This document shows positions 8,532 to 63,840 of a DNA stretch of 64,000 bases, piece by piece. The notes under the pieces are model-generated. The model had not been told where the DNA came from. It ran no database searches and saw nothing but the letters and a program-made list of their open reading frames with translations. Source of the stretch: Flavobacteriaceae bacterium. Lineage in GTDB: Bacteria; Bacteroidota; Bacteroidia; Flavobacteriales; Flavobacteriaceae. Every line of letters starts with the position of its first letter. The first letter of the stretch is position 1. The translations under genes and the position numbers were made by a program. Where the stretch lies: the NCBI GenBank assembly GCA_965247215.1, contig OZ252001.1, positions 1,221,980-1,285,979 of the forward strand, read 5' to 3'.

Positions 8532-10967
8532 TTATTTCTTCCAATCATATTTAGTGTAATCACACCCGCATCTTATTTTCTTTGCAACAGTATCATAATT
8601 CCTTAGCGATACCATTGGTCTCTTACAATCCGATTGCTCACAAATAAATATCTTTTCCAATTCAAGTATATCAGCCCAGAAAGCTTTTAAATCACCAATT
8701 TTAGGATTGAAAGGATTATCGTGTGATGAAATATTCCCGAGTATTGATGAACTTTCTATTCGGTCAATAACTGGGAATTTTGCTTTTAATTCTGGACTAC
8801 ACTTTTTGATTTCCGATTTAATTCCCATAATCAATTCATAAGGCATTCTATGCTCATTTGAATGATTGTATTGGAAACTTAGTTTCGCTTCAATATTTAA
8901 GGCAACCTCTTTTAATGAATGTTCAAGATATCTACGAATAGGGTTCCCTAAACCGTCTATTTTACTATTGGCAAGGTTTGTCTCTATTCTTTCTCGTAAG
9001 TCGCTTGGTTCTTCTTCAAGATGTGTTCCATTAGCTTCTGTCCATTTAATCTCGTTTATTAGCCAGCCTTTCTTTTTTGCTAAAGGACTAACAAAATTTG
9101 TAAACCAATCCTCTTCGTGAGTAAGTAATATGATTTGATGTTTTGAGAATTTTTCAAAAATCAATTCTGCAAATCTTTTTCTATGGTTAGAGTCAAAACT
9201 TGAAATAACATCATCAAGAACGATAAATTCGTTCTTTTTGTTAAAGGCATTTACAGAGGCCAAGAAGAATGATAATCCAAAGCAATTTAGATGTGATTCG
9301 CTAAAATATTTTTGTGGTGGAGAAACCCAATTTCCATTGTATTTATATTCAATTGTAATACCGTTCAATTCATCTTCATCTCCGATTGTTACAATTTTGA
9401 TTTCCTGAAAAGGTTCATCAGGATTCATATATTGATAATACTCGTTTATTTTTCCAGAAAATGAAGTGATGAAATTTTCAAGACCTTCCTTTTGCTTTTT
9501 TACAAATTCATTATAAATAATTTCTAAAGTCTTACGCTGTTTTTCAAGTTTAGCTTTCTGCTTTTCAAATTGCTTTATTTTTAGAAATGCGTCTTTAGAA
9601 GCTGAGATATTGGAATATAAAACAGCTGAATTATCCTTTTTGAAAATTTCTTGGATTTGCTTTATTCTTGTTGTTATTCCATTTTGAAAATCAAAATCCT
9701 TTACAGATAATTTTATTGTTTCAGCTTTAGGTATTTTGTTTCCAGAAGTTACTCGCTCTAAACTCGATTTTTGATATTCAGCAATTTTTTCTTTTAAACC
9801 TACAAACCCTGTTTTGATAAGTTTGTTTTCATCTGCTGTAATTAGGTTTTCCGATAGAACTGTGTCAAGTCTCTTTGTTCGTTCTACAGTTATTGTGTTT
9901 ACTAACTGTTTAGCTTTGTCAAAAGAAGCTTTTTTCTTAGAAGATTCTTCAATGTCCTTTAATCTACTTGCAATTTCTGTACGGAGTTCTTCTATGTTCT
10001 TTGGTTGTAAACAAAGAGGGCAACTTTCATCTTTATGATACTTTTTTGATAGCACAGCATCTCCTGTTTTCAGTAATTCACCTAAAAAGGTTTGCATAAT
10101 GCTTTCAACGTCATTGGCAATTACTTCAAATTCATCATAGTATTTTATATATTCAGAATCAATAAAATCAATCTCAGATTTAAGTGTATTTAGAACTGTA
10201 TTTGATTTTTCTAAAAAAGCTAATTCCTTATTTAGCTTGTTATTTGTGGAGTTTTTTAAGTGTAAAAGAACTTTATCAATATCCTTTATTTCCTTAACTT
10301 CAATACCAGTTTTAAGAAGTTTAATTTTCTCATTTATCTTTTCAAACAAGTTCTCCTCTTGACTAATAGCAGCACCTAATTTTTCAATAAGCACCTGTTT
10401 TTGAGTATTTGTCTGGGCTTCAAAATTTTGATTTTTGATTTCTGTTTTTATAAAGCCGTGACTTTTTTTAAGGACTTCCTTTTTCTTTGTTACTTCTGAA
10501 AAACCTATAATATCAGAAAGATACTTTAGTTTATCTCCCATAGTATTGTCAATGAAGTTTGTAAGGTATCGATAACGCAACAAAAGGTTCTCTTCTTTTG
10601 AATCATCTAAGTATTGTTTGAAAGTTTCAGAAGTATTTGAAAAATCAGTTGTTAATTTATCTCGTTTATTGAATAGGGTTTTTGAACAATCAAGGTCAGT
10701 TTCTTTAACAAATGAAATGTTTACTTCCGAAATAGCATCAGTATCAAGAGCAGAATTTCTTAAAGCATCTTTTAAATCTATTTCGCTGTTACTTGATAGA
10801 TGTGATACTCGGTTTGTATAAAACCATTCAATAGAATCTGAAATACTACTTTTCCCAGTACCGTTATCACCATAAAGCAAAATTGATTTTCCATTTAACG
10901 GTAATTCTAAATTATCTTTTGCACCTCTAATTCCTTTGATGGTAATGTTATTAATCTTTGTTGCCAT
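8532..10967 (-). CDS. AAA_13/RloC-like ABC-type ATPase with coiled-coil CxxC hook and C-terminal putative nuclease domain
   Basis: 811 aa; Walker A GDNGTGKSS; central coiled coil with CPLCLQP; signature-like FSESHLNCFGLSFFLA; Walker B FIVLDDVISSFDSNHR; C-terminal RRYLEH and NISSHDN motifs; terminal Cys cluster C-x5-C...CGC. Confidence 0.6.
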   Translation of the reverse strand: MATKINNITIKGIRGAKDNLELPLNGKSILLYGDNGTGKSSISDSIEWFYTNRVSHLSSNSEIDLKDALRNSALDTDAISEVNISFVKETDLDCSKTLFNKRDKLTTDFSNTSETFKQYLDDSKEENLLLRYRYLTNFIDNTMGDKLKYLSDIIGFSEVTKKKEVLKKSHGFIKTEIKNQNFEAQTNTQKQVLIEKLGAAISQEENLFEKINEKIKLLKTGIEVKEIKDIDKVLLHLKNSTNNKLNKELAFLEKSNTVLNTLKSEIDFIDSEYIKYYDEFEVIANDVESIMQTFLGELLKTGDAVLSKKYHKDESCPLCLQPKNIEELRTEIASRLKDIEESSKKKASFDKAKQLVNTITVERTKRLDTVLSENLITADENKLIKTGFVGLKEKIAEYQKSSLERVTSGNKIPKAETIKLSVKDFDFQNGITTRIKQIQEIFKKDNSAVLYSNISASKDAFLKIKQFEKQKAKLEKQRKTLEIIYNEFVKKQKEGLENFITSFSGKINEYYQYMNPDEPFQEIKIVTIGDEDELNGITIEYKYNGNWVSPPQKYFSESHLNCFGLSFFLASVNAFNKKNEFIVLDDVISSFDSNHRKRFAELIFEKFSKHQIILLTHEEDWFTNFVSPLAKKKGWLINEIKWTEANGTHLEEEPSDLRERIETNLANSKIDGLGNPIRRYLEHSLKEVALNIEAKLSFQYNHSNEHRMPYELIMGIKSEIKKCSPELKAKFPVIDRIESSSILGNISSHDNPFNPKIGDLKAFWADILELEKIFICEQSDCKRPMVSLRNYDTVAKKIRCGCDYTKYDWKK

Positions 10968-11133
10968 CTCTCAGTTTTTGAAGTTCATTTTTAACATTCG
11001 TATCTGTCAATTTATCATTTTGATAAAGTTCAGATAGCATTTTTGCAATGTCTGTATCTACATTTTCAATTTCTTCAATACCGTTGAAAAAATCATCTAA
11101 TATTTCTTTTCCAGATTTCACTTTGTCTGCCAT
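10951..11133 (-). CDS. small acidic protein, unknown function
   Basis: 60 aa; overlaps the ATPase start by 17 nt and lies 6 nt downstream of the GIY-YIG gene, consistent with translational coupling. Confidence 0.35.
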   Translation of the reverse strand: MADKVKSGKEILDDFFNGIEEIENVDTDIAKMLSELYQNDKLTDTNVKNELQKLRDGNKD

Positions 11134-11139
11134 AGTGGT

Positions 11140-11595
11140 TTATTTAAAGTATTTCCAATCAATTTTAAAACTGGATGTTAGTGTCTTGTTTTCAATTTCA
11201 AAGCCAGATTTATTATTGCAAATGGGATAAACCCCATATTGTTTTACAAAATCTAAAATGAAATAACTTTCCAAATCTTCAATTCGGAATTGCCATATAT
11301 TTTTAAGCATTTCAAAATTAATGTAGGTAAATAATAAGGGTTCAACTTTTCTGTAATTGGTTAATCCTAAGTTTTTTGATTTACCATCAAAATGCCCTAA
11401 TAATCTACTACCAATACTATTCGTTTTCTTCTCGCTCATTCCGATATACAATAATTTTGATTTATCAAACGGATATTGAATATCAATAGATTGAGTAAAA
11501 ATGAAGTATAATCCTGCAATACCATTCAATGGTTTTATATTGGATGGCTCAAACGACATTGGTCTGTCGAAATATATGGTTACTTCATTTGTCAT
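11140..11595 (-). CDS. GIY-YIG domain protein (putative nuclease)
   Basis: 151 aa; GLYFIF...LLYIGMS...IGSRLLGHF...EDLESYFILDF...PICNN matches GIY / YIG / Arg / Glu / Asn core pattern. Confidence 0.55.
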   Translation of the reverse strand: MTNEVTIYFDRPMSFEPSNIKPLNGIAGLYFIFTQSIDIQYPFDKSKLLYIGMSEKKTNSIGSRLLGHFDGKSKNLGLTNYRKVEPLLFTYINFEMLKNIWQFRIEDLESYFILDFVKQYGVYPICNNKSGFEIENKTLTSSFKIDWKYFK

Positions 11596-11597
11596 TT

Positions 11598-13517
11598 TTA
11601 AAAAGCATTAAACTTATCGCCCATAGCGTGTTTTAGATTCCATTTTTTTGTGGTGTCTAAAGCACGTTCGAGTACAATTAATTTTTGGTCTATATTGGTT
11701 TTGAAATGTTCTACAGTTTCATCTGCAATAATGACGTCTAAACAGATTAAAGTTGATTTGTCTCCATCTGTAGCAAATAGAATCTCATTCTTTTTAAACT
11801 CCTCTTCCTTAGTTAACGTATAATTGAGTTTAAAACCGTTTTTGATTAATATTTCGGTAACCAATTCGTCTCGGTTAAAAGCATTTACCAATTGTGCTTC
11901 TTTGTCTTTAATGTACTTTTTAAGTAGCTCAATATTCTCTTCTTCTGTTTTTTCAGGGTCTGGAGCAAACTCTACTCTTGGGAAGTTTGATTTTTGAAGC
12001 TTGAATACTTTAAACCCTAAACCTTTTAATTGTTCTTGCTCAGTTTCCTCTTTTTTAAACAAATCAGGAGTTGCTTCTTTCTTTTCTTTAATTATTTTTT
12101 CAACTACTCTTTTGTTTCGCTCAATAGTGATGTCACTTATTTTTTTGTAACCTGCTTTGTAGGCTTCTTCATTTTCTTCAATTATTTCAGGGATTTGAAC
12201 AACTATGTATTTCCTATCTTGCTTATCTTCTTCATTAATTTCTGTAACTGCCTGAGCAGTAACTCCACTTCCTCCGAAAAAATCTAAAATAATATCATTT
12301 GATTTGGCATTTGAAATTTGAATTAATCCTCTAATTAACTCTTTTGGTTTTGGGTTACTAAATATATTTTTCTCACCAAATAAAGAAGTCATTTCGTTAT
12401 TAGCACCTTGATTATGACTAAATTGTTCGTGTGACCACCAATTTGTTGCACATTGTCCTTCTTCTTCACGTTCAAAACGAAAATATTTTTTACGAGGAAA
12501 ACCATCTCCTTTTTTAGGAAACACTATTCTATTATCTGCTAATAATTTTTTATAGGTATCTTCTTCACCCATCCATTCTCCCTCATATTCCTTTTTGTTA
12601 TTTGGATTTTTGATAATGTATTTACTTCCTGATTGGTCTGAACCTACTTTCCAAGGCTTAGATGCCCAGTCACCTCTTGAGTCTTTATCTGGATTAGAGA
12701 AGTCACCTGTTAAATCTACTTTTCCAACACCTGCTTTTTTATATTCTTCCTTGTTTTTAGAATATGACAAAATATGCTCAGCAACTATGCCTATCATTTT
12801 AGTTTTGTCATTTGGTTGGTTATGTCTTCTTCTCCAATGAATGTGGCCTTCAAAATTTTCTTCACCAAATATTTCATCGCAAATTTTTCTCAAATGATGG
12901 ACTTCTTCATCTGAAATGGAAATAAATATGACTCCTTTATCATTGAGCAATTGTCTTGCAATTAGCAATCGACTATACATCATATTTAACCAATTACTAT
13001 GATACCTACCTGAACTTTCAGAATTAGTATCAATTTTCAATCCGTTCTCAATCATTTCAGCATCTTCCCAATATGCTTTTTTATCTTGTTTCCAAGTATC
13101 ACGGTAAATAAAATCTCTGTCTTTGTTATAAGGAGGGTCAATATAAATACACTTTACTTGCTCACGGTAACTGTTGCTTAGTAATTTAAGTACAGCTAAA
13201 TTTTCACCCTCTATAATTAAGTTTTCACTTTCGCTTGGGTTTACACTTCTTTCCTCATCATAAACAAGTGTTGCATCTGTTGGTGTAAAAGCTTCACGTT
13301 TAGCATTGCTTTTTCCAAACCATCTAAATTCGTAGCGTTCGGTTTCGTTTACGCTTTTGGGGTCAACTATTTTTTTAAGTTCGTTTATGTTTAGCTCTCC
13401 ATCATTGGTAAAAAGGTCTGGCATTAATTGTTTTAATTGCTCCAATCTTTCTTTGTTCCAATCGTTGCTCAAAGGCATATGTTCGTTTATATTTTCCATT
13501 GTTCTATGCTTCTTCAA
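11598..13517 (-). CDS. mod: Type III restriction-modification Mod methyltransferase (beta-class N6A/N4C)
   Basis: 639 aa; motif IV IYIDPPYN precedes motif I LDFFGGSGVTAQAV (beta-class order); N-terminus typical of Type III Mod. Confidence 0.85.
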   Translation of the reverse strand: MKKHRTMENINEHMPLSNDWNKERLEQLKQLMPDLFTNDGELNINELKKIVDPKSVNETERYEFRWFGKSNAKREAFTPTDATLVYDEERSVNPSESENLIIEGENLAVLKLLSNSYREQVKCIYIDPPYNKDRDFIYRDTWKQDKKAYWEDAEMIENGLKIDTNSESSGRYHSNWLNMMYSRLLIARQLLNDKGVIFISISDEEVHHLRKICDEIFGEENFEGHIHWRRRHNQPNDKTKMIGIVAEHILSYSKNKEEYKKAGVGKVDLTGDFSNPDKDSRGDWASKPWKVGSDQSGSKYIIKNPNNKKEYEGEWMGEEDTYKKLLADNRIVFPKKGDGFPRKKYFRFEREEEGQCATNWWSHEQFSHNQGANNEMTSLFGEKNIFSNPKPKELIRGLIQISNAKSNDIILDFFGGSGVTAQAVTEINEEDKQDRKYIVVQIPEIIEENEEAYKAGYKKISDITIERNKRVVEKIIKEKKEATPDLFKKEETEQEQLKGLGFKVFKLQKSNFPRVEFAPDPEKTEEENIELLKKYIKDKEAQLVNAFNRDELVTEILIKNGFKLNYTLTKEEEFKKNEILFATDGDKSTLICLDVIIADETVEHFKTNIDQKLIVLERALDTTKKWNLKHAMGDKFNAF

Positions 13518-16074
13518 TTAATGTATTAATAGTAGTATTGGCTTCTGTTTTAAAATATTGGTAATCTTTTACAGGAGCTTTGTATTGTACATCTACGCCT
13601 AAAGTGGCAAAATGCTTAATGGCACATTTTATTTTGTACACTTCACTTTCTTTTAGTGCTTTCTTATTATTAATGTCGTTTGTTCCCTTGGTTTCTATTA
13701 CAAAGTAGAATTCACTTTCTTTTCCATCTCTCAAACTTTTCCGTTTCATTACTACACCAAAATCTGGATTGTAATCGCCAATTGGCGTTTTTATTTTGTA
13801 GTAAGATGGAAGCTTTAAAAAACAAATAACTTCATCATCATTATCTGTAGCCAAAGCAAATTGATGCTCTACATTGCTATCGTGAATTATTTTGTCGTAC
13901 ACCCCTCTTTTTGGAGTGTCAGTATAATTACTGTACTCAATTTGTTTTTTGAAATCGTTAAATTCAAAAGGGAAAGAGGAATCTGTTACATGGTAATCCA
14001 ATCCTCTTATCATTTCTTCTAACTCAATGTTTTTAATAAGAGCGGATGCTTGATGAATAAATTGAGGCGGATTTTTAGCAAAATTCTCATAAGCAATTCC
14101 GTTAATAATAGTAAAGGTTGTGAGGTAGCTTAAACCTGTGTTCTCGCTAATTTCTTCTACTAAATCTAAAGCTGTAAAATGAGCTTTCAGTTTGTAGCTT
14201 TCTGTACCTCCAAATTCATCTTCAATACCGTCTTCTGTAATTGCTCCAATAGAACGACTGCTTACTTCTGCTTCATAATCTGCAATTTTAATTGCATTCA
14301 GTGCTTCTTTACATCTGTTAATTAAAGCTTGTTCGTCAAATGCTACAGTATAATTTGTCTTTTTAGCCAAAGCAGTCCAAAAGCGTTTAAAGGCCTTATT
14401 GATAGTATCGTTAGCATTGCGTTTAAAATGAACTTCATTTTGTTTTTCTCCTTTATGCGTATGTGTCATTCCTGCACCAGCACTTGAAGTTCCATAAACT
14501 TCCTTAATTTCTTCTTGATACTGCGTTACAAAAGTCTCGTAGCTTTCATTAGGAATTACGGTTAGTTGATTGATTCTTTCATCATCTGAAACGTTCAATT
14601 TATCATAAATACGTTGTCCGTCAGTATTTACACAAATACGCAATCCTCTTCCAATTTCTTGGCGTTTCTTAATTTCAGAAAACGAGTTGCTTAATGTTGC
14701 AATATTGAAAATATTTGGATTGTCCCAACCAACACCTAAAGCAGAGTGTGAAAAAATGAATTCTATTTTATTGGCTACAGAATCGCCATAGCTCAACAAC
14801 CCTTCTTTGTCTCTTAAAATAGCATCAAAAACAGCTGCGTTTTTTCGCATTGAACTTTCGTTATCTGTGAATTCATTTTTGCCTGTTTTAGCAAAATAAG
14901 AACCTTGAATAGTTTCAATATGTTCTGCTGTTGGTTGCTTGTTATTGTGAAATTTGGGATAGAGTTTCTTGTATTTTTTTATAAAGAGGTTTTTAATGAT
15001 AGGGTCATCACTTACATAATTGGCAACTTTATCAATGAATATTAGTGAAAGGCATTTGATGCCTTTTTCTTGTAGTTTTTGTTTTTTTGTAAAGTGTCGA
15101 ATGATGAGCCATTCAATTTGTAAGTCCCAAATACTTTGAATATTTCCAGAAGTTTGATTTTCAAAAATTTCTGTTCCGTTAGTAAATGAAACTGACCATT
15201 TTTGGGTTCTCAGGCTTTTCTTAATTCTGTCAATTTTGTATTTCAAATAGCTTGGATTATTGATAACTTCTCCAAGATTGTCACCATCCTTTAACCATTT
15301 TGTATCTTTAAATTCAATTTTCCCACTTGTCAATTGATGCCAAGCTTTAATTTTTGCTTGAATTGGATTTTTTCCGTTTTTAGTTTCTGAAAGTTCCAAT
15401 TTTAAAGTGGCTTCATCATTTTTTTCGGTAACCGTTAAAACTTCAATCTTTTTTACCAATCCTTGTTTATAACTGTCATAAGGAGTTAAACGATACATTT
15501 TGTTTTTTGCAACTTTGTGCGTCGCAGAATATCTAATCTTAAATAACGGATTTAATTTAGCTATTTGATTGATAGAGTTTGGTGTGTCCATTCCTTCTTG
15601 TGGTTCATCCATTATGATTATTGGATTGGTTCGTCCAATGGCTTCAATAAAAGGAATGTTTGCAAAAAGGTCTTCTCTTTTGGCTTGATTTAAAATTTTG
15701 TCTTCCGAGTTGAAAGAAGCCAACGTCATTACCATTATTTGAGGATGTTGTTCCTCAATAAAGTTGGTTACTTTGCTAAGCTTTTTACTATTGTATTCAA
15801 ATGATTTTGGCGTAAATCCATAGATATCTTCCAATTGTTTTTCAAAAGTAGATAGCGTACTTAAAACTCCTTGACGAATAGCAACCGAAGGAACGAGGAT
15901 GATGAATTTTGTAAATCCATACTGTTTGAATAGCTCATAAATGGATTTGACGTAAACAAGTGTTTTTCCTGTTCCTGTTTCCATTTCAATGGTTAATTCT
16001 TGTTCGTTGGTCAGTTTTGCAACTTCATCATCAACCCCGTTTTCAAGCAAAACAGATTTTAAATTCTCTTCCAA
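13504..16074 (-). CDS. res: Type III restriction enzyme Res subunit (SF2 helicase + PD-(D/E)xK nuclease)
   Basis: 856 aa; METGTGKT (motif I), IIMDEPQ (motif II), QEIGRGLR (motif VI), C-terminal NPDF...VIETKG nuclease motif; TTG start, N-terminus short. Confidence 0.85.
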   Translation of the reverse strand: MEENLKSVLLENGVDDEVAKLTNEQELTIEMETGTGKTLVYVKSIYELFKQYGFTKFIILVPSVAIRQGVLSTLSTFEKQLEDIYGFTPKSFEYNSKKLSKVTNFIEEQHPQIMVMTLASFNSEDKILNQAKREDLFANIPFIEAIGRTNPIIIMDEPQEGMDTPNSINQIAKLNPLFKIRYSATHKVAKNKMYRLTPYDSYKQGLVKKIEVLTVTEKNDEATLKLELSETKNGKNPIQAKIKAWHQLTSGKIEFKDTKWLKDGDNLGEVINNPSYLKYKIDRIKKSLRTQKWSVSFTNGTEIFENQTSGNIQSIWDLQIEWLIIRHFTKKQKLQEKGIKCLSLIFIDKVANYVSDDPIIKNLFIKKYKKLYPKFHNNKQPTAEHIETIQGSYFAKTGKNEFTDNESSMRKNAAVFDAILRDKEGLLSYGDSVANKIEFIFSHSALGVGWDNPNIFNIATLSNSFSEIKKRQEIGRGLRICVNTDGQRIYDKLNVSDDERINQLTVIPNESYETFVTQYQEEIKEVYGTSSAGAGMTHTHKGEKQNEVHFKRNANDTINKAFKRFWTALAKKTNYTVAFDEQALINRCKEALNAIKIADYEAEVSSRSIGAITEDGIEDEFGGTESYKLKAHFTALDLVEEISENTGLSYLTTFTIINGIAYENFAKNPPQFIHQASALIKNIELEEMIRGLDYHVTDSSFPFEFNDFKKQIEYSNYTDTPKRGVYDKIIHDSNVEHQFALATDNDDEVICFLKLPSYYKIKTPIGDYNPDFGVVMKRKSLRDGKESEFYFVIETKGTNDINNKKALKESEVYKIKCAIKHFATLGVDVQYKAPVKDYQYFKTEANTTINTLIEEA

Positions 16075-16183
16075 TTGTTTAGTAGAAAGCGAACATATAT
16101 TTGAACGAATACCATCCTTACAAGCATTGTCAAATGTGTTTTTGTCGTTTCCTGGTATTCTAATAATTCTAATTTTATTTCCA

Positions 16184-16501
16184 TTAATCTTGGCTGTTCT
16201 GTTTATTAATGTACTTCATTTTCTGCTCGGCAACTTTTAATGCTTTGCCACCAAGCTCTTCATCTTTTATTTCGTAAAGAATTTTTTCACTTAGATACTG
16301 AACGAGTAAATCATCCTTGTCTAAATCCAGTATTTCAGCAAGTTTTAGAATCTGTTCTTTTGTTGCTTTTCTCTCGCTTCTTTCTATTTTACTGAGTATT
16401 GCAGTGTCAATATCGAGTCCCGCAGAAACGTGTCGCAAAAGCAGTCCTTTTTCTTCTCTTTTTTCTCGAAGTATTTCGCCTGTTGTTTTGTTGTTTTTCA
16501 T
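16184..16501 (-). CDS. XRE-family HTH regulator (likely controller/C-protein of the R-M operon)
   Basis: 105 aa; HTH_3-like ILREKREEKGLLLRHVSAGLDIDTAILSKIERSER; first gene of the operon. Confidence 0.8.
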   Translation of the reverse strand: MKNNKTTGEILREKREEKGLLLRHVSAGLDIDTAILSKIERSERKATKEQILKLAEILDLDKDDLLVQYLSEKILYEIKDEELGGKALKVAEQKMKYINKQNSQD

Positions 16502-16512
16502 TTGTTAAATAT

Positions 16513-16546
16513 CACTTGATTAATTACACTTGACAATTAAAGTCAA
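16513..16546 (-). promoter_or_regulatory. putative operator (C-box-like repeats)
   Basis: Direct repeat CACTTGA at 16513-16519 and 16527-16533; palindrome TTGAC-N7-GTCAA at 16530-16546 overlapping the -7 box/TSS. Confidence 0.4.
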
Positions 16547-16575
16547 ATATAATTAGGGTTTTTGAATAATCAAAG
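16544..16575 (-). promoter_or_regulatory. promoter of the XRE-res-mod operon
   Basis: On minus strand TTTG (16574..16571), 19-nt spacer, TATATTTG (16551..16544). Confidence 0.5.
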
Positions 16576-17208
16576 GTTTTGTTTTCGGAATTTATTAACA
16601 GCATAAAAAGAAGGTGAAAAAAAATCAAAAGAAAAAGATAGCACCTTGAAATTTGTATAATCAGAAATTTTTGAAATGAATAATTTGTTTGTTACTGGGC
16701 TAGGATACAACTCAAAAAATGAAATATCAAAATCTTTTATTGGTAATAATTCATTGCCATAAATAGCTTGGTTACCTTCATTATTTGTAATCGTTAATTT
16801 TTTATTATTCCCATCATTTTCAATGAGATAACTTAAATCAAAACTTTGATTAATGTTCAAACGCCAAATACTAGTATAATACAAATCTGCAAAGGTGATA
16901 TTATCTCCATGAACACATGGAAATCCAAAAATAAACCAATCTCCTAAAGTTGTAAATAAATTTTCACTAGAAGAATATGAGCAAGATACGCTTATGGAAG
17001 TACATAAAGAAGTTGTTAAATATTCAGTAATTGCATAGAAGTTTAAAGGAATATTAACTCCCTCTCCATTAATTCCAGGAGGAAAATAATCTATATCGTC
17101 AATAATTACTTTTTGTAAATACCAATCATTTTCAAAAAGTTGAGGGTCTTGAGCAAAACTAGAAAGTGATGCAAAAAGAACTAAGAATAAGATTTTAATT
17201 GTTTTCAT
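16570..17208 (-). CDS. secreted protein with truncated T9SS C-terminal domain
   Basis: 212 aa; signal peptide MKTIKILFLVLFASLSSFAQ; C-terminus begins a T9SS CTD (LYPSPVTNKLFI) but ends ~25 aa later at the defence-operon promoter. Confidence 0.5.
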   Translation of the reverse strand: MKTIKILFLVLFASLSSFAQDPQLFENDWYLQKVIIDDIDYFPPGINGEGVNIPLNFYAITEYLTTSLCTSISVSCSYSSSENLFTTLGDWFIFGFPCVHGDNITFADLYYTSIWRLNINQSFDLSYLIENDGNNKKLTITNNEGNQAIYGNELLPIKDFDISFFELYPSPVTNKLFISKISDYTNFKVLSFSFDFFSPSFYAVNKFRKQNL

Positions 17209-17463: not shown

Positions 17464-17644
17464 AATATTTTATAACTTTTTTCATTACAGTTCGTCCTTG
17501 ATTGTCTTCTAACATTAAAAAATAAAGTCCGTCATTCAATTTTTGTATGTCAATTGACTTATTAATTAAATCAGATCCATTTAAAGATAAAATAAGTTTA
17601 CCACCAATGTTGTAAATAAGTTTTTCCAGTCCAAATTCTATAAG
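17462..17644 (-). pseudogene. orphan T9SS C-terminal sorting domain fragment
   Basis: Minus-strand frame reads ..IYNIGGKLILSLNGSDLINKSIDIQKLNDGLYFLMLEDNQGRTVMKKVIKY*; no upstream body, stop codon in frame at 17645-17647. Confidence 0.45.
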
Positions 17645-17940
17645 CTATAAGTTTTCCCTGTAATGTATTTTTATCAATGTTTAAAGTTTTAGGAATGTAC
17701 TTTAAAAAAAGGCTTATTTTATTTAGTGCGTATATTGTATTTGTACGACGATTTAACTCAACTTCGTATACAACGTTGCGGTTTACTCCTAACATTTCTG
17801 AAACCTGATGTTGAGTTAATCCTCTATCCATTCTCTCTTTTCTTAATTCATCACCAATAGTTAGAATCTCTATAGGATACCGAAAATGCTTAGGTTTAGG
17901 GTGCTTTAGGGTTAGAGGGGGTAATGGGGTACAAACAGTA

Positions 17941-18608
<668 letters not shown>

Positions 18609-53915: not shown

Positions 53916-54955
53916 TTTAGCTAAGTTCTAAGAAGCATATTAAATAGTTGTTGTTTGTACCCGTACCAAGCGGTACTTGAGGTTAGGGTAAGGGTGACCA
54001 TACGCTGTGTGCTGTGCTTGATCTTCTCCAGCACCAGAAACCAGTTCAGGTAGTTCCGAAGGTACTTGGTGGCCACGCCATGGAACGGTTGCATAAAGTT
54101 CCTAAGCCTCTTGTCCATATTGTTGAGATTCTGTACGTGGTAGATCTGCTCTGTCTTGCGCTGCCCCCTGGAGGCATTGAACTTCTTGTGCTGCGCCTTT
54201 ATTCCCCTGACAAAGACCGTGTAGCTTCGGTGGCTGCCGCTACAAAGGGCTTCTGCCTTGTCCAGCTTACCGTCCAACACCCTTTGGAGGTCTTTTTTGC
54301 TTATCCTTCCCCTGGCGACCACCTTGAAGTCTTTGTTCCCAGAGCGGTCGCAGGTGGCAATGACAGCAACCTGCTCATCGCTGACCCCTGCTTTGCTCGT
54401 TTTGATACCACACTTAGCTGAAGGTCTGTCTAAATTGCGATTGCCCTTCTCTGAATATAAAAAGAACAGATCATCGCTCTCCACGATGCCCTCAAAGCCC
54501 TCAGAGGAGACCACCGAAAAACTTGTCAAGAACTTGTGACGCCAATCGAAGGAGGTCTGTATTGATATCTCCGTCTCCTTGGCACTCCTTCTGATGCTAT
54601 AGCCCGACAACAGGCAGTACAGATACTTCCTCACTTTGTTCTTCTTCTTTAGGGCAAACCAGAACTTACCAGTAGTCTCACTAAAATTCTTCTTGCAACT
54701 CTTGCATACATAGCGCTGTACCCCCTTAAGACGACCATTGCCACCAACGGATTTGCTCTGACAATGCGGGCAACTCAACGCCTTACCCTCTGAGGTGTCT
54801 ACCACCTCACTACTTTGCACGCTCAACTGAAAAACTCTTCTATAATCTGTTGCTGTTCGTGCTCACTACATTGATTGAAATAATCGCTGAAACCACTCGG
54901 TATCATAGGGCTACATTAGCTCACTAATAGACAATATTTTTATTAGAACTTATCC
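53916..54955 (-). mobile_element. IS1595-family (ISXO2-like) insertion sequence, full copy
   Basis: ~1.04 kb; terminal imperfect inverted repeat with core TAAGTTCTAA (53922-53931) / TTAGAACTTA (54943-54952); ~50% G+C versus ~25-30% flank. Confidence 0.6.
53921..54826 (-). CDS. IS1595-family transposase with N-terminal zinc ribbon
   Basis: 301 aa; CPHCQS...CKSCKK zinc ribbon; C-terminal HVQNLNNMDKRLRNF...GVATKYLRNYLNWF pattern. Confidence 0.65.
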   Translation of the reverse strand: MSVQSSEVVDTSEGKALSCPHCQSKSVGGNGRLKGVQRYVCKSCKKNFSETTGKFWFALKKKNKVRKYLYCLLSGYSIRRSAKETEISIQTSFDWRHKFLTSFSVVSSEGFEGIVESDDLFFLYSEKGNRNLDRPSAKCGIKTSKAGVSDEQVAVIATCDRSGNKDFKVVARGRISKKDLQRVLDGKLDKAEALCSGSHRSYTVFVRGIKAQHKKFNASRGQRKTEQIYHVQNLNNMDKRLRNFMQPFHGVATKYLRNYLNWFLVLEKIKHSTQRMVTLTLTSSTAWYGYKQQLFNMLLRT

Positions 54956-55529
54956 TTATTGTTTGATCACTTTCAAATGTTTGTTGATCCATACCCCTTT
55001 CAATTGAATGAAATAAACGCCATTTTGACAGCTGGTTAAATCCATGGTATCGGTATATCTACCAGAGACAACGTCTATAACTTTTTGCGTAATGAGTTTA
55101 CCACTCACATCGTAAACCCGCATCATAATTCTTTCTTCAGATTCTGGAGAAGCGATCTCGATAGTATAATAACCTACGCCCGGGTTCGGATAAACGGCTA
55201 CACTAATGTTGTTATAAACATTATGATTATTTGCACTTCCTGGGCAGGGATTGCCATTTACCGTCACGGTGAAGGAACAGGTATCCGTATTGCCCACTGC
55301 ATCGGTGGCCGTCCACGTAACCGTGATATTACCGATCGCAAAGACCGCTCCGGCCAGCGTGCTGGTGTTAGTAAAGTCGTTTGTGATCGTGCTTCCCAGA
55401 CAGTTATCGGTAAGGGTAGCATCCCATCCGCTACCCACCACGGTATAGCTGCAGGAGCCAGCATCGGTATTGACGGTGGTATCAGCCGGGCAGATGATGG
55501 TCGGATCCTCTGCATCGATCACGGTGATG

Positions 55530-56705
55530 TCAAAGCTGCACGTGTTCGAAGCGTTGATCTTTTGTTGCTGGGGCCAGGTCGTACCACTCCTTTTAAAAAT
55601 ATAGGCCGAGCCGGCATTTGTAGTGCCTGATGGATCTTCACGATAGGCACCCACGATGGCGTAGTCGCTGGAGATCGATACGGAAGTGCCAAACCAGTCG
55701 TATGCTTGTTTATCCGAAGCGTTGATCTTTTGTTGCTGGGGCCAGGTCGTACCATTTCTTTTAAAAATATAGGCCGAGCCGGCATCTGCAGTGCCTGATG
55801 GATCTTCCCCAGACGCACCCACGATGGCGTAGTCCCCGGAGATCGATACGGAACGGCCAAAATTGTCGTTTGCTTGTTTATCCGAAGCGTTGATCTTTTG
55901 TTGCTGGGTCCAGGTCGTACCACTCCTTTTAAAGATATAAGCCGAGCCGGCATTTGTAGTGCCTGATGGATCTTCATAATAGGCGCCCACAATAGCGTAG
56001 TCGCCGTCGATCGATACGGACCAGCCAAAATAGTCGTGTGCTTGTTTATCCGAAGCGGTGATCTTTTGTTGCTGGGCCCAACTCGTACCACTCCTTTTAA
56101 AGATATAAGCCGAGCCGGCACCAGTAGTGTTTGATGGATCTTCCCCACGCGCACCCACGATGGCGTAGTCCCCGGAGATCGATACGGACCAGCCAAAATA
56201 GTCGTCTGCTTGTTTATCCGAAGCGGTAATCTTTTGTTGCTGGGACCAGGTCGTACCATTTCTTTTAAAAATATAGACCGAGCCAGCATCTGCAGTGCCT
56301 GATGGATCTTCATAATAAGCGCCCACAATAGCGTAGTCGCCGGAGATCGATACGGAATAGCCAAACCGGTCGTATGCTTGTTTATCCGAAGCGGTGATCT
56401 TTTGTTGCTGGGTCCAGGCCGTACCACTCCTTTTAAAGATATAAGCCGAGCCAGCATTTGTAGTGCCTGATGGATCTTCCCCACGCGCACCCACGATGGC
56501 GTAGTCCCCGGAGATCGATACGGAATAGCCAAAATAGTCGTATGCTTGTTTGTCCGAAGCGGTGATCTTTTGTTGCTGAGCCCAGGTCGTACCACTCCTT
56601 TTAAAGATATAAGCCGAGCCGGCATTTGTAGTGCCTGATGGGTCTTCAAGATAGGCACCCACGATGGCGTAGTCGCCAGAGATCGATACGGAACGGCCAA
56701 AATAG
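55530..56705 (-). repeat. seven FG-GAP-like blade repeats (second propeller), 168-bp period
   Basis: GATCGATACG recurs at 55841 and 56009 (168 nt apart); 7 x 56-aa blades. Confidence 0.75.
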
Positions 56706-56934
56706 TCGGATGCGTCTCCAAGGAGCATCTGTACGATCACCGTTAATGTATCGCCTACCGGAACCGTATCACCCGATACCGGACCGCTGATCGTTGTCCA
56801 GGGTACGGTGTTGCCATCACAATCCGCAGCCACCACCAGACTGCCGTAATTGACTGCGGCGTTGCACTGCCCCGGATCATTCTCTACCACGATTAACTCC
56901 GAAGGACAGCTGATCACAGGCTCCCCATTATCAG

Positions 56935-59900
56935 TTACCGTCACGGTGAAGGAACAGGTATCCGTAAGGCCCGCTGCATCGGTGGCCGTCCAGGTAACCG
57001 TGATAGCACCGATCGCAAAGACCGCTCCGGCCAGCGTGCTGGTGTTAGTAAAGTCGTTTGTGATCGTGCCTCCCGGACAGTTATCGGTAAAGGTAGCATC
57101 CCATCCGCTGCCCACCATGGTATAGCTGCAGGAGTCAGCGTCATTATCGACGACCTGATCAGCCGGACAGCTGGTCACAGGTGCCTGGTTATCAGTTACC
57201 GTCACGGTGAAGGAACAGGTATCCGTAAGGCCCGCTGCATCGGTGGCCGTCCACGTAACCGTGATAGCACCGATCGTAAAGACCGCTCCGGCCAGCGTGC
57301 TGGTGTTAGTAAGGTCGTTTGTGATCGTGCCTTCCGGACAGTTATCGGTAAAGGTAGCATCCCATCCGCTGCCCACCACGGTATAGCTACAGGGGTCAGC
57401 GTCATTATCGACGGTCTGGTCAGCCGGACAGCTGATCACAGGTGCCTGGTTATCAGTTACCGTCACGGTGAAGGAACAGGTATCCGTATTGCCCACTGCA
57501 TCGGTGGCCGTCCACGTAACCGTGGTATCACTGATCGTAAAGACCGCTCCGGCCAGCGTGTTCGAATTATTAAAGTCGTTTGTAATCGTGCCTCCCGGAC
57601 AGTTATCGGTAAAGGTAGCATCCCATCCGCTGCCCACCACGGTATAGCTGCACAAGTCCGCGTCATTATCGACGGTCTGGTCAGCCGGACAGCTGATCAC
57701 AGGTGCCTGGTTATCAGTTACCGTCACGGTGAAGGAACAGGTATCCGTAAGGCCCGCTGCATCGGTGGCCGTCCACGTAACCGTGATATTACCGATCGCA
57801 AAGACCGCTCCGGCCAGCGTGCTGGTGTTAGTAAGGTCGTTTGTGATCGTGCCTTCCGGACAGTTATCGGTAAAGGTAGCATCCCATCCGCTGCCCACCA
57901 TGGTATAGCTGCAGGAGTCAGCGTCATTACCGACGGTCTGGTCAGCCGGACAACTGGTCACAGGTGCCTGGTTATCAGTTACCGTCACGGTGAAGGAACA
58001 GGTATCCGTAAGACCCGCTGCATCGGTGGCCGTCCACGTAACCGTGATATTACCGATCGCAAAGACCGCTCCGTCCAGCGTGCCGGTGTTAGTAAGGTCG
58101 TTTGTGATCGTGCCTCCCGGGCAGTTATCGGTAAAGGTAGCATCCCATCCGCTGCCCGCCATGGTATAGCTGCAGGAGTCAGCGTCATTATCGACGGTCT
58201 GATCAGCCAGACAACTGGTCACAGGTGCCTGGTTATCAGTTACCGTCACGGTGAAGGAACAGGTATCCGTAAGGCCCGCTGCATCGGTGGCCGTCCACGT
58301 AACGGGGGTATCACCGATCGCAAAGACCGCTCCGGCCAGCGTGCCGGTGTTAGTAAGGTCGTTTGTGATCGTGCCTCCCGGACAGTTATCGGTAAAGTCA
58401 GCATCCCATCCGCTGCCCACCATGGTATAGCTGCAGGAGTCAGCGTCATTACCGACGGTCTGATCAGCCGGACAGCTGGTCACAGGTGCCTGGTTATCAG
58501 TTACCGTCACGGTGAAGGAACAGGTATCCGTAAGACCCGCTGCATCGGTGGCCGTCCACGTAACGGGGGTATCACCGATCGCAAAGACCGCTCCGGCCAG
58601 CGTGCCGGTGTTAGTAAGGTCGTTTGTGATGGTGCCTCCCGGACAGTTATCGGTAAAGTCAGCATCCCATCCGCTGCCCACCATGGTATAGCTGCAGGAG
58701 TCAGCGTCATTACCGACGGCCTGATCAGCCGGACAGCTGATCACAGGTGCCTGGTTATCAGTTACCGTCACGGTGAAGGAACAGGTATCCGTAAGGCCCG
58801 CTGCATCGGTGGCCGTCCACGTAACGGGGGTATCACCGATCGCAAAGACCGCTCCGGCCAGCGTGCCGGTGTTAGTAAAGTCGTTTGTGATCGTGCCTCC
58901 CGGACAGTTATCGGTAAAGGTAGCATCCCATCCGCTGCCCACCACGGTATAGCTGCAGGAGTCAGTGTCATTATCGACGGTCTGGTCAGCCGGACAGCTG
59001 ATCACAGGTGCCTGGTTATCAGTTACCGTCACGGTGAAGGAACAGGTATCCGTATTGCCCACTGCATCGGTGGCCGTCCACGTAACCGTGATATTACCGA
59101 TCGCAAAGACCGCTCCGTCCAGCGTGCTGGTGTTAGTAAGGTCGTTTGTGATCGTGCCTCCCGGACAGTTATCGGTAAGGGTAGCATCCCATCCGCTGCC
59201 CACCACGGTATAGCTGCAGGAGTCAGTGTCATTATCGACGGTCTGGTCAGCCGGACAGCTGATCACAGGTGCCTGGTTATCAGTTACCGTCACGGTGAAG
59301 GAACAGGTATCCGTATTGCCCACTGCATCGGTGGCCGTCCACGTAACCGTGATATTACCGATCGCAAAGACCGCTCCGTCCAGCGTGCTGGTGTTAGTAA
59401 GGTCGTTTGTGATCGTGCCTCCCGGACAGTTATCGGTAAAGGTAGCATCCCATCCGCTGCCCACCACGGTATAGCTGCAGGAGTCAGTGTCATTATCGAC
59501 GGTCTGGTCAGCCGGACAGCTGATCACAGGTGCCTGGTTATCAGTTACCGTCACGGTGAAGGAACAGGTATCCGTATTGCCCGCTGCATCGGTGGCCGTC
59601 CACGTAACCGTGATATTACCGATCGCAAAGACCGCTCCGTCCAGCGTGTTGGTGTTAGTAAGGTCGTTTGTGATCGTGCCTCCCGGACAGTTATCGGTAA
59701 GGGTAGCATCCCATCCGCTGCCCACCACGGTATAGCTGCACAAGTCAGTGTCATTATCGACGGTCTGGTCAGCCGGACAGCTGGTCACAGGTGCCTGGTT
59801 ATCAGTTACCGTCACGGTGAAGGAACAGGTATCCGTATTGCCCACTGCATCGGTGGCCGTCCACGTAACCGTGATATCACCGATCGCAAAGACCGCACCG

Positions 59901-62150
59901 TCCAGCGTGCTGGTGTTAGTAAGGTCGTTTGTGATGGTGCCTCCCGGACAGTTATCGGTAAAGGTCAGCATCCCATCCGCTGCCCACCATGGTATAGCTG
60001 CAGGAGTCAGCGTCATTATCGACGGTCTGATCAGCCGGACAGCTGGTCACAGGTGCCTGGTTATCAGTTACCGTCACGGTGAAGGAACAGGTATCCGTAA
60101 GGCCCGCTGCATCGGTGGCCGTCCACGTAACCGTGGTATCACCGATCGCAAAGACCGCTCCGTCCAGCGTGCTGGTGTTAGTAAGGTCGTTTGTGATCGT
60201 GCCTCCCGGACAGTTATCGGTAAAGTCAGCATCCCATCCGCTGCCCACCATGGTATAGCTGCAGGAGTCAGCGTCATTATCGACGGTCTGGTCAGCCGGA
60301 CAGCTGATCACAGGTGCCTGGTTATCAGTTACCGTCACGGTGAAGGAACAGGTATCCGTATTGCCCGCTGCATCGGTGGCCGTCCACGTAACCGTGATAT
60401 TACCGATCGCAAAGACCGCTCCGGCCAGCGTGCTGGTGTTAGTAAGGTCGTTTGTGATGGTGCCTCCTGGACAGTTATCGGTAAAGGCAGCATCCCATCC
60501 GCTGCCCACCATGGTATAGCTGCACAAGTCAGCGTCATTATCGACGACCTGATCAGCCGGACAGCTGATCACAGGTGCCTGGTTATCAGTTACCGTCACG
60601 GTGAAAGAACAGGTATCCGTAAGGCCCGCTGCATCGGTGGCCGTCCAGGTAACCGTGATAGCACCGATCGCAAAGACCGCTCCGGCCAGCGTGCTGGTGT
60701 TAGTAAAGTCGTTTGTGATCGTGCCTCCTGGACAGTTATCGGTAAAGGTAGCATCCCATCCGCTGCCCACCACGGTATAGCTGCACAAGTCAGCGTCATT
60801 ATCGACGACCTGATCAGCCGGACAGCTGGTCACAGGTGCCTGGTTATCAGTTACCGTCACGGTGAAGGAACAGGTATCCGTAAGGCCCGCTGCATCGGTG
60901 GCCGTCCAGGTAACCGTGATATCACCGATCGCAAAGACCGCTCCGGTCAGCGTGCTGGTGTTAGTAAAGTCGTTTGTGATCGTGCCTCCCGGACAGTTAT
61001 CTTTAAAGTCAGCATCCCATCCGCTGCCCACCACGGTATAGCTGCACAAGTCCGCGTCATTATCGACGGCCTGATCAGCCGGACAGCTGATCACAGGTGC
61101 CTGGTTATCAGTTACCGTCACGGTGAAGGAACAGGTATCCGTAAGGCCCGCTGCATCGGTGGCCGTCCACGTAACCGTGATATCACCGATCGCAAAGACC
61201 GCTCCGGCCAGCGTGCTGGTGTTAGTAAGGTCGTTTGTGATCGTGCCTCCCGGACAGTTATCGGTAAAGGTAGCATCCCATCCGCTGCCCACCATGGTAT
61301 AGCTGCACAAGTCCGCGTCATTATCGACGGCCTGGTCAGCCGGACAGCTGGTCACAGGTGCCTGGTTATCAGTTACCGTCACGGTGAAGGAACAGGTATC
61401 CGTAAGGCCCGCTGCATCGGTGGCCGTCCAGGTAACCGTGATATCACCGATCGTAAAGACCGCTCCGTCCAGCGTGCTGGTGTTAGTAAAATCGTTTGTG
61501 ATCGTGCCTCCCGGACAGTTATCTTTAAAGTCAGCATCCCATCCGCTGCCCACCATGGTATAGCTGCACAAGTCCGCGTCATTATCGACGGTCTGGTCAG
61601 CCGGACAGCTGATCACAGGTGCCTGGTTATCAGTTACCGTCACGGTGAAGGAACAGGTATCCGTAAGACCCGCTGCATCGGTGGCAGTCCAGGTAACCGT
61701 GATATCACCGATCGCAAAGACTGCTCCGGCCAGCGTGTTCGAATTATTAAAGTCGTTTGTGATCGTGCCTCCCCGACAGTTATCGGTAAAGGTAGCATCC
61801 CATCCGCTACCCACCATGGTATAGCTGCAGGAGTCTGCGTCATTATCGACGGTCTGGTCAGCCGGACAGCTGATCACAGGTGCCTGGTTATCAGTTACCG
61901 TCACGGTGAAAGAACAGGTATCCGTAAGGCCCGCTGCATCGGTGGCCGTCCACGTAACCGTGATATCACCGATTGCAAAGACCGCTCCGTCCAGCGTGTT
62001 GGTGTTAGTAAGGTCGTTTGTGATCCTGCCTTCCAGACAGTTATCGGTAAAGGTAGCATCCCATCCGCTGCCCACCATGGTATAGCTGCACAAGTCCGCG
62101 TCATTATCGACGGTCTGGTCAGCCAGACAGCTGATGGTCGGATCCTCTGC
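56935..62150 (-). repeat. 20 tandem copies of a 261-bp (87-aa HYR-like) coding repeat
   Basis: Alternative-frame ORFs recur every 261 nt (56941, 57202, ... 61901); protein repeat CPADQxVDNDADxCSYTxVGSGWDAxFTDNCPGGTITND...TVTWTATDAAGLTDTCSFTVTVTDNQAPV. Confidence 0.9.
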
Positions 62151-62184
62151 ATCGATCACGGTGATGTCAAAGCTGCACATGTCT

Positions 62185-63382: not shown

Positions 63383-63840
63383 TTGCTTCTCCAATGAGCA
63401 TCTGTACGATCACCGTTAATGTATCGCCTACCGGGACCGTATCACCCGATGCCGGACCGCTGATCGTTGTCCAGGGCACGGCATTGCCATTAGCATCCAC
63501 GGCCACCACCAGGCTGTCGTAATCGACTGCGGCGCTACACTGCCCAGAATCGTTCTCTACCACTACCAACCCTGAAGGGCAGGTGATCGACTGCGCCCAG
63601 ACACCAGGTGCCGTAAATACCGACAAAAAGACCCCAAGCAGCAGCACTCTCAAAAAAGTATTCCATTTAAATACGGAGTAGTAAACCTTCTGTATAGCAG
63701 TTAGAGCATTTAATCGTATCATTGTTTTCATAATTTGTATAGTTAAGTTTATTTGTTGACAAATTTTAAATCGTTTCTATAGGCTTTCTCTGAGCTGCTC
63801 CCGGTCGTCTGAACAGTTTTTTTCATGTGTTTATATATAG

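Follow-up and report, generated by a model that had tools for sequence, protein, structure and literature searches.

Do six tightly packed genes in a flavobacterial genome make up a single defence operon, or do the last three of them form a unit of their own, and of what kind? The genes in question lie within 64,000 nucleotides (nt) of DNA from a Flavobacteriaceae bacterium (GenBank assembly GCA_965247215.1, contig OZ252001.1, positions 1,221,980 to 1,285,979 of the forward strand), a stretch that was analyzed at its full length and is referred to as the window throughout, position 1 being its first letter. All six are encoded on the minus strand, together covering 8532-16501, and comprise genes for an XRE-family regulator and for Type III restriction (Res) and modification (Mod) proteins, followed by a trio coding for a GIY-YIG-type protein, a small acidic protein of 60 amino acids (aa) and an SMC/Rad50-like ABC ATPase. 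A first-pass annotation from the sequence alone had described this arrangement as a six-gene defence operon, the trio of which might be a new abortive-infection or backup module licensed by the restriction-modification (R-M) complex. Its six open reading frames (ORFs) were recovered at the same positions and with the same junctions, i.e., an overlap of 14 nt between res and mod (provided that mod starts at TTG), spacers of 2 nt between mod and the GIY gene and of 6 nt between the latter and the small ORF, and an overlap of 17 nt between the small ORF and the ATPase gene. The region is, in fact, two separable modules, XRE-Res-Mod and the trio, residing within a genomic island. The trio itself appears to be an autonomous ATPase-nuclease cassette, likely directed against phages or plasmids on the principle of RloC and Lamassu, a reading to which we assign from sequence comparison a probability of roughly one half.

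Distribution and neighbourhood of the trio

Scanning genomes with one representative per species gave 80 loci, and in 77 of these the genes for the GIY protein, the small protein and the ATPase are all contiguous. Their spacing is fixed as well, with 5-7 nt behind the GIY gene and then the 17-nt overlap in 54 of the 77 loci, through which the 60-aa gene is translationally coupled to the ATPase gene. Besides several classes of Bacteroidota, the hosts include metagenome-assembled genomes of Endomicrobia, Brocadia, Nitrospirae and Ignavibacteria. Moreover, the identities that the trio members of a locus show to their window counterparts rise and fall together (r = 0.92 for GIY versus ATPase and 0.90 for small protein versus ATPase), the GIY protein being the best conserved of the trio with a mean identity of 79% versus 66% for the ATPase. 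The neighbourhood survey thus bears out the earlier view of the three downstream genes as a module and disposes of the objection that they might never co-occur in other genomes. An alternative effector replacing the GIY protein was considered for two loci and rejected, as these show loss or decay: in one (L049, 9300-10017, near prfA) the GIY gene is lost while the small ORF and an intact ATPase gene are kept, and in the other (L050, 2400-4171) it is absent and the ATPase is truncated.

Trio proteins are also encoded on plasmids of Brucella anthropi and Aliiroseovarius, where the ATPase shows 29% identity over the full length and the GIY protein 41% (E 7e-45), and where a homologue of the 60-aa protein is detectable by hhalign (E 6e-7). 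On these alphaproteobacterial plasmids, the GIY gene (L082, 3731-4174, minus strand; L083, 4312-4761, minus strand) is divergent from the pair of small ORF and ATPase gene. As the three genes are thus kept together with the GIY gene inverted, the linkage of the trio survives rearrangement. The GIY gene of the Brucella anthropi plasmid is absent from the PLSDB gene table and adjoins repA/repB. More distant ATPase homologues were found on Phaeobacter, Fibrella and haloarchaeal plasmids (L084, 3822-6445; L085, 3781-6391; L086, 3828-5962). Those of Phaeobacter and Fibrella are full-length proteins of about 800 aa (hhalign probability 99.7-99.9%), and the one of Natrinema has 654 aa and is devoid of the C-terminal extension. 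Each of these genes is preceded by an overlapping ORF for an acidic protein of 58-81 aa, and none is accompanied by a GIY-YIG gene. Because the GIY-less relatives keep the small acidic ORF, the small protein would belong with the ATPase and the GIY protein would be a clade-specific third component. The plasmid pairs of small ORF and ATPase gene look like a broader two-gene family, of which no description was found.

In line with the initial impression of an undescribed architecture, PADLOC 2.0 and Pfam did not recognize the trio as a known system, with the ATPase as the only component matching any defence model, and no description of the trio was found in the literature surveyed, which did not cover the ABC-ATPase classification of Krishnan et al. 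(2020), the source of ABC-3C.

An XRE-Res-Mod set of the window type accompanies the trio in 11 of the 80 loci and a different Type III system in three. Of 43 non-redundant genes located immediately upstream, about 18 encode R-M domains according to Pfam, substantiating the suspected link between the trio and R-M. Among these 43 same-strand genes, ResIII was found in 7 (including HsdR), Eco57I-type domains in 6, N6_N4_Mtase in 4, N6_Mtase in 4 and a C5 methylase in one, besides three reverse transcriptases, AAA_13/RloC, KwaB, HipA, RhuM and some housekeeping genes. Genes for nSTAND proteins and integrases also occur nearby, as do tra genes belonging to a conjugative element. At about 30 loci, no more than 50 nt separate the GIY gene from the end of the same-strand gene upstream of it. 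In Zunongwangia, for example, genes for an XRE protein, an Eco57I-like enzyme and M.Eco57I are followed by the trio amid tra genes of a conjugative element, and in Mucilaginibacter (L090) the trio is followed by genes for an AAA_13 protein (10447-12939), nSTAND3 and an integrase. A true RloC is encoded directly upstream of the trio in L023 (7050-9338) and L033, with an AAA_13 match of 2.5e-112 and homologues named 'wobble nucleotide-excising tRNase'. Since RloC/AAA_13 genes thus adjoin the trio (L023, L033, L090), its ATPase and RloC co-occur rather than substitute for each other. Among the 2.9 million viral contigs of IMG/VR, only one matched, and this contig looks like a fragment of an R-M island with the order small ORF, DPPY-motif methyltransferase and trio; by reading of its sequence, the methyltransferase would belong to Type II R-M.

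The three proteins of the trio

In the ATPase, Walker A (GDNGTGKS, residues 33-40), signature (FSESHL), Walker B (FIVLDD), D-loop (ISSFD) and H-loop (LLTHE) motifs can be located. A sub-threshold match to Pfam SMC_N places residues 5-624 on a head profile of 220 positions, indicating a bipartite head, the halves of which are about 450 residues apart with C316-P-L-C319 in the middle of the insert. The CPLC motif and all ABC motifs are invariant in 73 aligned family members, and a CxxC hook is also present in the distant plasmid homologues. PADLOC models for LmuB match at 9.8e-25 and 1.7e-23, the latter near full length, with about 82-85 bits, and weak matches of PtuA and AriA are restricted to the P-loop region. 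Likewise, sequence and profile searches of the PDB with the ATPase returned SMC and PtuA at P-loop level only. At least 711 clusters of homologues at 90% identity were obtained, nearly all of about 809 aa and unnamed.

Behind the head, the ATPase continues with an extension of about 180 residues, which is limited to the C-terminus of family members with approximately 800 aa (291 clusters at 50% identity, the remainder being fragments). An AlphaFold2 model of the helical C-domain gave a helical bundle with a pLDDT score (predicted local distance difference test) of 69 and a predicted template modelling (TM) score of 0.66. Invariant residues are R678-x3-E682-x3-K686, N701, N704-E705, R707, N745 and S748-H749, as are the four cysteines of the subsequent C4 cluster, which aligns in the Phaeobacter and Fibrella homologues. 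Foldseek comparison of the C-domain with PDB and BFVD yielded nothing significant. The only matches with low root-mean-square deviation (RMSD) are the HEPN proteins 2q00, 2hsb and 1o3u, found at E values of about 1-7, probabilities of 0.18-0.82 and target-normalised TM-scores of 0.49-0.58. The E-x3-K of HEPN domains is present as E682-x3-K686, and the Fibrella homologue shows a canonical HEPN-like RNEVGAH not more than 2-3 residues away from the G-N-x2-S-H site of the ATPase. When 26 C-domain sequences were compared with Pfam at E ≤ 5, no consistent family emerged. From model and motifs, the domain may be HEPN-like or similar to the anticodon nuclease domain of RloC.

The 151-aa protein of the window stays below the Pfam thresholds, with 15.9 bits versus 22.4 for GIY_YIG_2 and 13.8 versus 22.6 for GIY-YIG (E values of 0.013 and 0.075), and no match was obtained with Pfam, PADLOC or NCBIfam at standard thresholds. 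Of 47 family members, in contrast, 46 match GIY_YIG_2 (best 6.2e-8) and 34 match GIY-YIG. The identity given in the first-pass annotation is therefore upheld by the family, the window protein alone being below threshold. Conserved Arg, Glu and Asn residues follow the GIY and YIG motifs, as invariant in the 47 sequences are G28-L-Y30, Y50-I-G52, R64, H68, E106/E109 and N127/N128, which we take to correspond to the catalytic residues of I-TevI. The protein consists of the catalytic core alone, with a hairpin from GIY to YIG that is about 9 residues longer, and a DNA-binding or docking domain was not found in it. Strands and helices are predicted in an order compatible with the GIY-YIG fold. Homologues form 1528 clusters at 90% identity. 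A sequence and profile search of the PDB returned only adenylate kinase (E 1.6), and 5 of the 47 family members touch PDC-M57B weakly at E 0.004 or weaker.

With 15 D/E versus 9 K/R residues and a net charge of about -6, the 60-aa protein is acidic, as noted before, and its conservation in 77 loci marks the ORF as a real gene. The family shares the pattern VKSGKEILDDFF...VD...LY..GKLTD.NV.NEL..LR. Neither Pfam nor PADLOC nor PDB gave a robust match. A weak match to the Myb-like ARR10 in the PDB (E 0.003) and one to NCBIfam myb_SHAQKYF (1.6e-4, below cut-off) were set aside because the protein is strongly acidic.

The XRE-Res-Mod genes and the surrounding island

The assignments of the three upstream genes hold when examined with hidden Markov models (HMMs). 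The XRE protein matches Pfam HTH_3 (5.2e-8) as well as PADLOC HTH_VI (5.9e-7) and Control_protein (1.6e-4) and is a probable C-protein-like controller. Of the promoter with operator-like palindrome previously seen upstream of its gene, the palindrome stands. A repeat search gave an inverted repeat with arms of 14 nt, a spacer of 7 nt and the core TTGAC-N7-GTCAA, which is kept in 11 of 11 loci combining XRE, Res, Mod and trio, three of them with otherwise divergent flanks; the repeat fits an operator of the C-protein type, although its function is inferred. A 'canonical promoter' did not stand, as sigma-70-like matches are at chance level (36 found versus 36.2 expected from shuffled sequence), and the sigma-70 consensus is not the relevant promoter consensus in flavobacteria, to which the host belongs according to its L19-Flavobacteria leader. 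Overall, promoter and terminator scans were at chance level only.

Upstream of the XRE gene, about 100 nt from its start (approximately 16600-16610), a conserved CTGTTAATAA motif was observed. It is kept in all 11 operon-sharing loci (window, L001, L003-L007, L010, L012, L013 and L066) though the flanks diverge, and may mark a boundary of the cassette or a site of recombination.

The main res ORF clearly encodes Type III domains, matching PADLOC REase_III at 1.1e-167 and Pfam ResIII and RE_endonuc at 1.1e-14 and 3.5e-32, respectively. The first profile position covered by the REase_III match is 64, and the ORF is short of about 50 N-terminal residues. The cause can be deduced from translating the window and ten relatives in three frames and from aligning the DNA with L001, L010, L006 and L005. 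The genuine start of res is the ATG within TAATG, and in ten related loci this start reads on in frame as ME[IL]KLE[EL]LEYQ[EQ][TAI]AIKSVV[ND]VFD[GC]..., resulting in Res proteins of 904-907 aa in 13 of 14 loci. In the window, it opens only the 41-aa stub, as 37 nt located in the relatives between two GGAAAC repeats, in the order CAGGAAAC, 37 nt and GACAAAAAC, are missing. The deletion junction lies within GGAAAC at 16147-16152, and the stub is out of frame afterwards. A homopolymer error as cause of the frameshift was rejected, since a deletion between GGAAAC repeats is of the slippage type. Hence, an intact single-frame Type III Res is not encoded in the window, although helicase and endonuclease domains are present. 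As the conserved N-terminal segment is missing from a product started at TTG (16074), restriction is probably lost, and the gene is best regarded as inactivated with a Res protein that is probably inactive. This deletion had escaped the first-pass annotation.

By comparison, mod is apparently intact. Its product is a full-length Type III Mod, residues 14-632 corresponding to positions 6-610 of the 621 in PADLOC MTase_III (4.3e-156), with a Pfam N6_N4_Mtase match of 5.2e-30. Tandem repeats indicative of phase variation were found neither in res nor in mod. Among otherwise near-identical operons, Mod identity ranges from 55% to 93%, compared with about 80-86% for Res and 71-94% for the trio ATPase, a divergence consistent with swapping of target-recognition domains in a Type III methyltransferase.

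Table 1. Coordinates of the genes, protein features and repeat discussed in the text; n/a, not applicable.
Feature	Position in window	Strand	Remarks
XRE gene	16184-16501	-	105 aa; stop overlaps res start (TAATG)
res 5' stub ORF	16059-16184	-	41 aa, MEIKLELLEYQ..., frame differs from main res ORF
res main ORF	13504-16074	-	856 aa from TTG; Type III Res
mod	11598-13517	-	639 aa; Type III methyltransferase
GIY-YIG-type gene	11140-11595	-	151 aa
Small acidic protein gene	10951-11133	-	60 aa
ATPase gene	8532-10967	-	811 aa, SMC/Rad50-like ABC ATPase
CPLC zinc-hook-like motif of ATPase, residues 316-319	10011-10022	-	
ATPase C-terminal all-helical domain, about residues 655-770	8658-9005	-	
ATPase C-terminal C4 zinc module (C776, C781, C800, C802)	8562-8642	-	
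Operator-like inverted repeat upstream of XRE gene	16521-16555	n/a	
BfmA/BtgA-like mobilisation ORF, 152 aa	7968-8426	+	Convergent with ATPase gene

The island extends over about 6.7-19 kb of the window and is bordered by housekeeping genes on both sides. The ORF facing the ATPase gene matches BfmA/BtgA mobilisation proteins in their N-terminal domain (NCBIfam NF041200, 4.2e-13) and is the sole mobility-related gene seen in the island. Because of its presence, the island may be, or derive from, a mobilisable element. At 17893-18599, a lone 707-nt 16S rRNA fragment is found on the minus strand. It covers Rfam small-subunit positions 9-873 only, thus implying internal loss as well, and is overlapped by a 136-aa ORF (17598-18008) with an HTH_3 match. 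Apart from this fragment, no 23S, 5S or tRNA gene was detected anywhere in the 64-kb window. The fragment may be a relic at the island edge or an assembly chimera. Farther away, at 54000-64000, the GC content rises from about 0.30 to 0.47-0.58, and two giant FG-GAP and HYR repeat proteins are encoded on the minus strand (54956-60016 and 59952-63731), the former bearing a Por_Secre_tail sorting domain of the type IX secretion system (T9SS). As both ORFs overlap by 65 nt, a frameshift may have divided a single gene here.

Readings of the trio and its relation to known systems

As an autonomous cassette, the trio would function by dimerization of the ATPase via its CxxC hook and monitoring of DNA for ends, including those cut by neighbouring restriction enzymes, or for aberrant replication structures. 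A DNA-end trigger suggests itself because it has been reported for Lamassu (PMC12663957) and proposed for RloC. As stoichiometric partner of the ATPase, the small protein might have the role of an adaptor or inhibitor. When triggered, an ATP-driven rearrangement would free the GIY-YIG DNase and possibly a HEPN-like activity of the C-domain, too, and the nuclease or nucleases so released would destroy nucleic acids of the invader and/or the host. As R-M neighbours can be of any type, a shared product, i.e., restriction ends, or co-regulation is likelier than a specific protein contact. Only tentatively, this may be extended to a widespread abortive-infection machine with dual DNA/RNA-nuclease activity, composed of a zinc-hook ABC-HEPN ATPase, a micro-protein and a GIY-YIG DNase, which R-M operons of every type have picked up time and again at their 3' end, the reason being its action on restriction ends or on restriction failure. 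If true, the trio would be a generic 'restriction-linked' second layer and not the partner of one enzyme.

A number of observations weigh against an autonomous defence cassette on the RloC/Lamassu principle. LmuB scores are modest across the family (74-113 bits), and solved structures of LmuB or DdmC were not found with the ATPase family profile. The GIY protein does not possess the C-terminal docking domain of LmuA (no PADLOC LmuA and no Pfam ABC-3C C-terminal domain match), and neither the 60-aa protein nor any of 33 family members matches an ABC-3C middle component (MC) or LmuC. In addition, the AlphaFold2 model of the GIY protein, built with 34 close homologues, only reached a pLDDT of 40.8 and was unusable for a fold search. 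In the ATPase C-domain, the arginine position of the HEPN motif Rx4-6H is occupied by G744 (G-N-x2-S-H), and its likeness to HEPN and RloC is below significance with Foldseek (E about 1) as well as with hhalign (E 0.08). Finally, the trio of Polluticoccus stands alone amid housekeeping genes with its own upstream region and no defence context, and some plasmid copies adjoin rep/par genes.

The six genes could, nevertheless, be one operon in which the trio serves as a PrrC-like backup that is kept silent or licensed physically by the Type III Res-Mod complex and set free once R-M is inhibited. This would accord with their position on a single strand with junctions between 2 nt and 17 nt, a run in which no internal terminator-like site was found on the minus strand, with the identical order of all six genes in 11 loci, with the location of the trio directly behind R-M genes at many loci and with the precedent of PrrC-EcoprrI (PMC2610378, PMC3710099). 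On the other hand, the R-M partner of the trio can be of Type I, II, IIG or III, can be absent or can be swapped for reverse transcriptases, KwaB or RloC, and such variable partners make licensing by specific protein-protein interaction unlikely. Moreover, the XRE-Res-Mod set occurs in only 11 of the 80 loci, the trio can have its own upstream region, as in Polluticoccus, and in the window res is frameshifted next to an intact trio, a state evidently tolerated by the cell. The licensing suggested in the first-pass annotation is not supported by these findings, and a single six-gene unit is quite unlikely. Somewhat less so, though still unlikely, the ATPase might be a self-contained anticodon nuclease or RNase of the RloC-type ABC-HEPN kind, with the small protein being its inhibitor in the manner of an antitoxin and the GIY protein an accessory of one clade, for example, for making or processing DNA ends. 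Here, the invariant R678-x3-E682...S748-H749 in the style of the RloC motif (PMC2610378), the E-x3-K, the HEPN folds as sole low-RMSD Foldseek matches, the DDxISS[FL]D D-loop in common with true RloC, and the GIY-less relatives that keep the small ORF and an ATPase with the same C-domain, including RNEVGAH at the matching site in Fibrella, are set against an AAA_13 score below the gathering cut-off, the lack of a PADLOC RloC/PrrC match, the insignificant profile comparison of the C-domain with 118 RloC sequences, the longer spacer in the motif and the exchange of the Rx4-6H arginine for glycine. True RloC is also found beside the trio, and the high conservation of the GIY protein together with its intact catalytic residues argues for this protein being functionally central.

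Apart from defence, a role in DNA repair or mobile-element maintenance might be considered, in which the trio would be an analogue of SbcCD/Rad50-Mre11 with GIY-YIG standing in for the Mre11-type nuclease. The nuclease gene just upstream of a zinc-hook SMC-like ATPase gene mirrors sbcD-sbcC, the NCBI Gene Ontology (GO) term 'double-strand break repair' is attached to distant homologues, and trio copies reside on plasmids, one of them beside repA/repB, and inside conjugative elements. This is opposed by the sporadic, island-borne distribution with variable defence neighbours and by the single match among viral contigs; besides, SbcC/Rad50 do not have the extra HEPN-like and zinc-binding C-terminal domain (PMC2610378). 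Hence, such a function is improbable.

If functional as an autonomous cassette, the trio adds a compact and abundant member to the nucleases governed by ABC ATPases, and it could show how systems of the RloC and Lamassu kinds relate. It is concentrated in Bacteroidota, the defence repertoire of which is poorly covered by E. coli-centred screens. Since the trio attaches itself to R-M operons of Types I, II, IIG and III at their 3' end, the old idea that SMC/Rad50-like sensors read restriction products or restriction failure can be tested directly. The window offers a natural experiment, with res broken but mod and trio intact.

Among known systems, RloC combines PrrC-like ABC motifs with a coiled-coil/CxxC insert and a C-terminal Arg-x3-Glu-x36-52-His, the His being often preceded by Ser (PMC2610378). 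In this respect the designation of the ATPase as 'RloC-like' in the first-pass annotation is justified at the level of architecture, as its head is split by a coiled-coil insert with central CxxC, the Walker B motif ends in DD, the D-loop DDxISS[FL]D is common to the window ATPase and the true RloC of L023, and a helical C-domain with Arg-x3-Glu...Ser-His is present. Furthermore, the size of the trio ATPase is within the range of 658-897 aa reported for RloC, which is also occasionally linked to R-M (PMC2610378). Membership of the RloC family, however, is not backed by HMMs. The AAA_13 match reaches 25.4 bits versus a cut-off of 36 and covers the ATPase part only, PADLOC models for RloC and PrrC gave no match to the window ATPase at E ≤ 0.01, and LmuB is the best PADLOC model instead. 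When aligning the family with 118 true RloC proteins by hhalign, only the region of Walker B and signature aligns (E 9e-6), and for the C-domains the probability amounts to 0.7%. The spacer in R678-x3-E682-x66-S748-H749 comprises 66 residues versus 36-52. Unlike RloC, which is a single gene, the trio ATPase has an extra C4 zinc module and comes with two partner genes.

PrrC-EcoprrI is likewise built around an ABC ATPase whose C-domain is possibly of HEPN type and whose gene lies inside or behind an R-M operon, presumably to provide a second line of defence (PMC2610378, PMC3710099). Yet PrrC is a single gene without coiled coil or hook and invariably linked to Type Ic, whereas the R-M partner of the trio is variable or absent and its two extra genes are obligatory. 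With SbcCD/Rad50-Mre11 the trio has in common the gene for a zinc-hook SMC-like ATPase directly after a nuclease gene, and recognition of DNA ends is plausibly shared. It differs by a GIY-YIG nuclease instead of a calcineurin-like phosphoesterase, by the extra micro-protein and C-terminal domain, and by being made up of accessory island genes and not of core genes. Septu, PARIS, Gabija and PADLOC HEC-01 to HEC-04 combine an ABC ATPase with an HNH, Toprim, NERD or PIN nuclease. They resemble the trio in pairing an ABC-ATPase sensor with a nuclease and in frequently lying within other defence systems (bioRxiv 10.1101/2024.01.29.577857), but the trio employs an ATPase of another clade with a long hooked insert, another nuclease fold and a third micro-protein. 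In a survey of 132 defence systems, GIY-YIG is listed in three single-gene systems only (bioRxiv 10.1101/2024.10.26.620412), and the study on embedded defences does not mention it (bioRxiv 10.1101/2024.01.29.577857).

Lamassu consists of an LmuA effector, the middle protein LmuC and the SMC-like ATPase LmuB, and reportedly senses DNA ends (PMC12663957). The trio shares the order of effector, small middle gene and SMC-like ATPase as well as the defence-island context, and, among the PADLOC models, LmuB comes out best for the ATPase as well as for all of its relatives. Long LmuB proteins of about 800 aa possess a hhhhDD Walker B motif and one CxxC (PMC12663957), and the trio ATPase has the same size, a DD Walker B and one CxxC. 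Differences are again evident in the partners. GIY-YIG is not among the nine effector domains listed for LmuA (PMC12663957), and the middle protein of the trio has only 60 aa and, although Pfam includes ABC-3C MC families (PMC11707656), does not match any of these. Moreover, the C-terminal extension of about 180 aa is found only in the family of the trio ATPase. Consequently, as a combination of an ABC/SMC-like ATPase with a nuclease, the trio does not represent a categorically new principle but falls between RloC and Lamassu.

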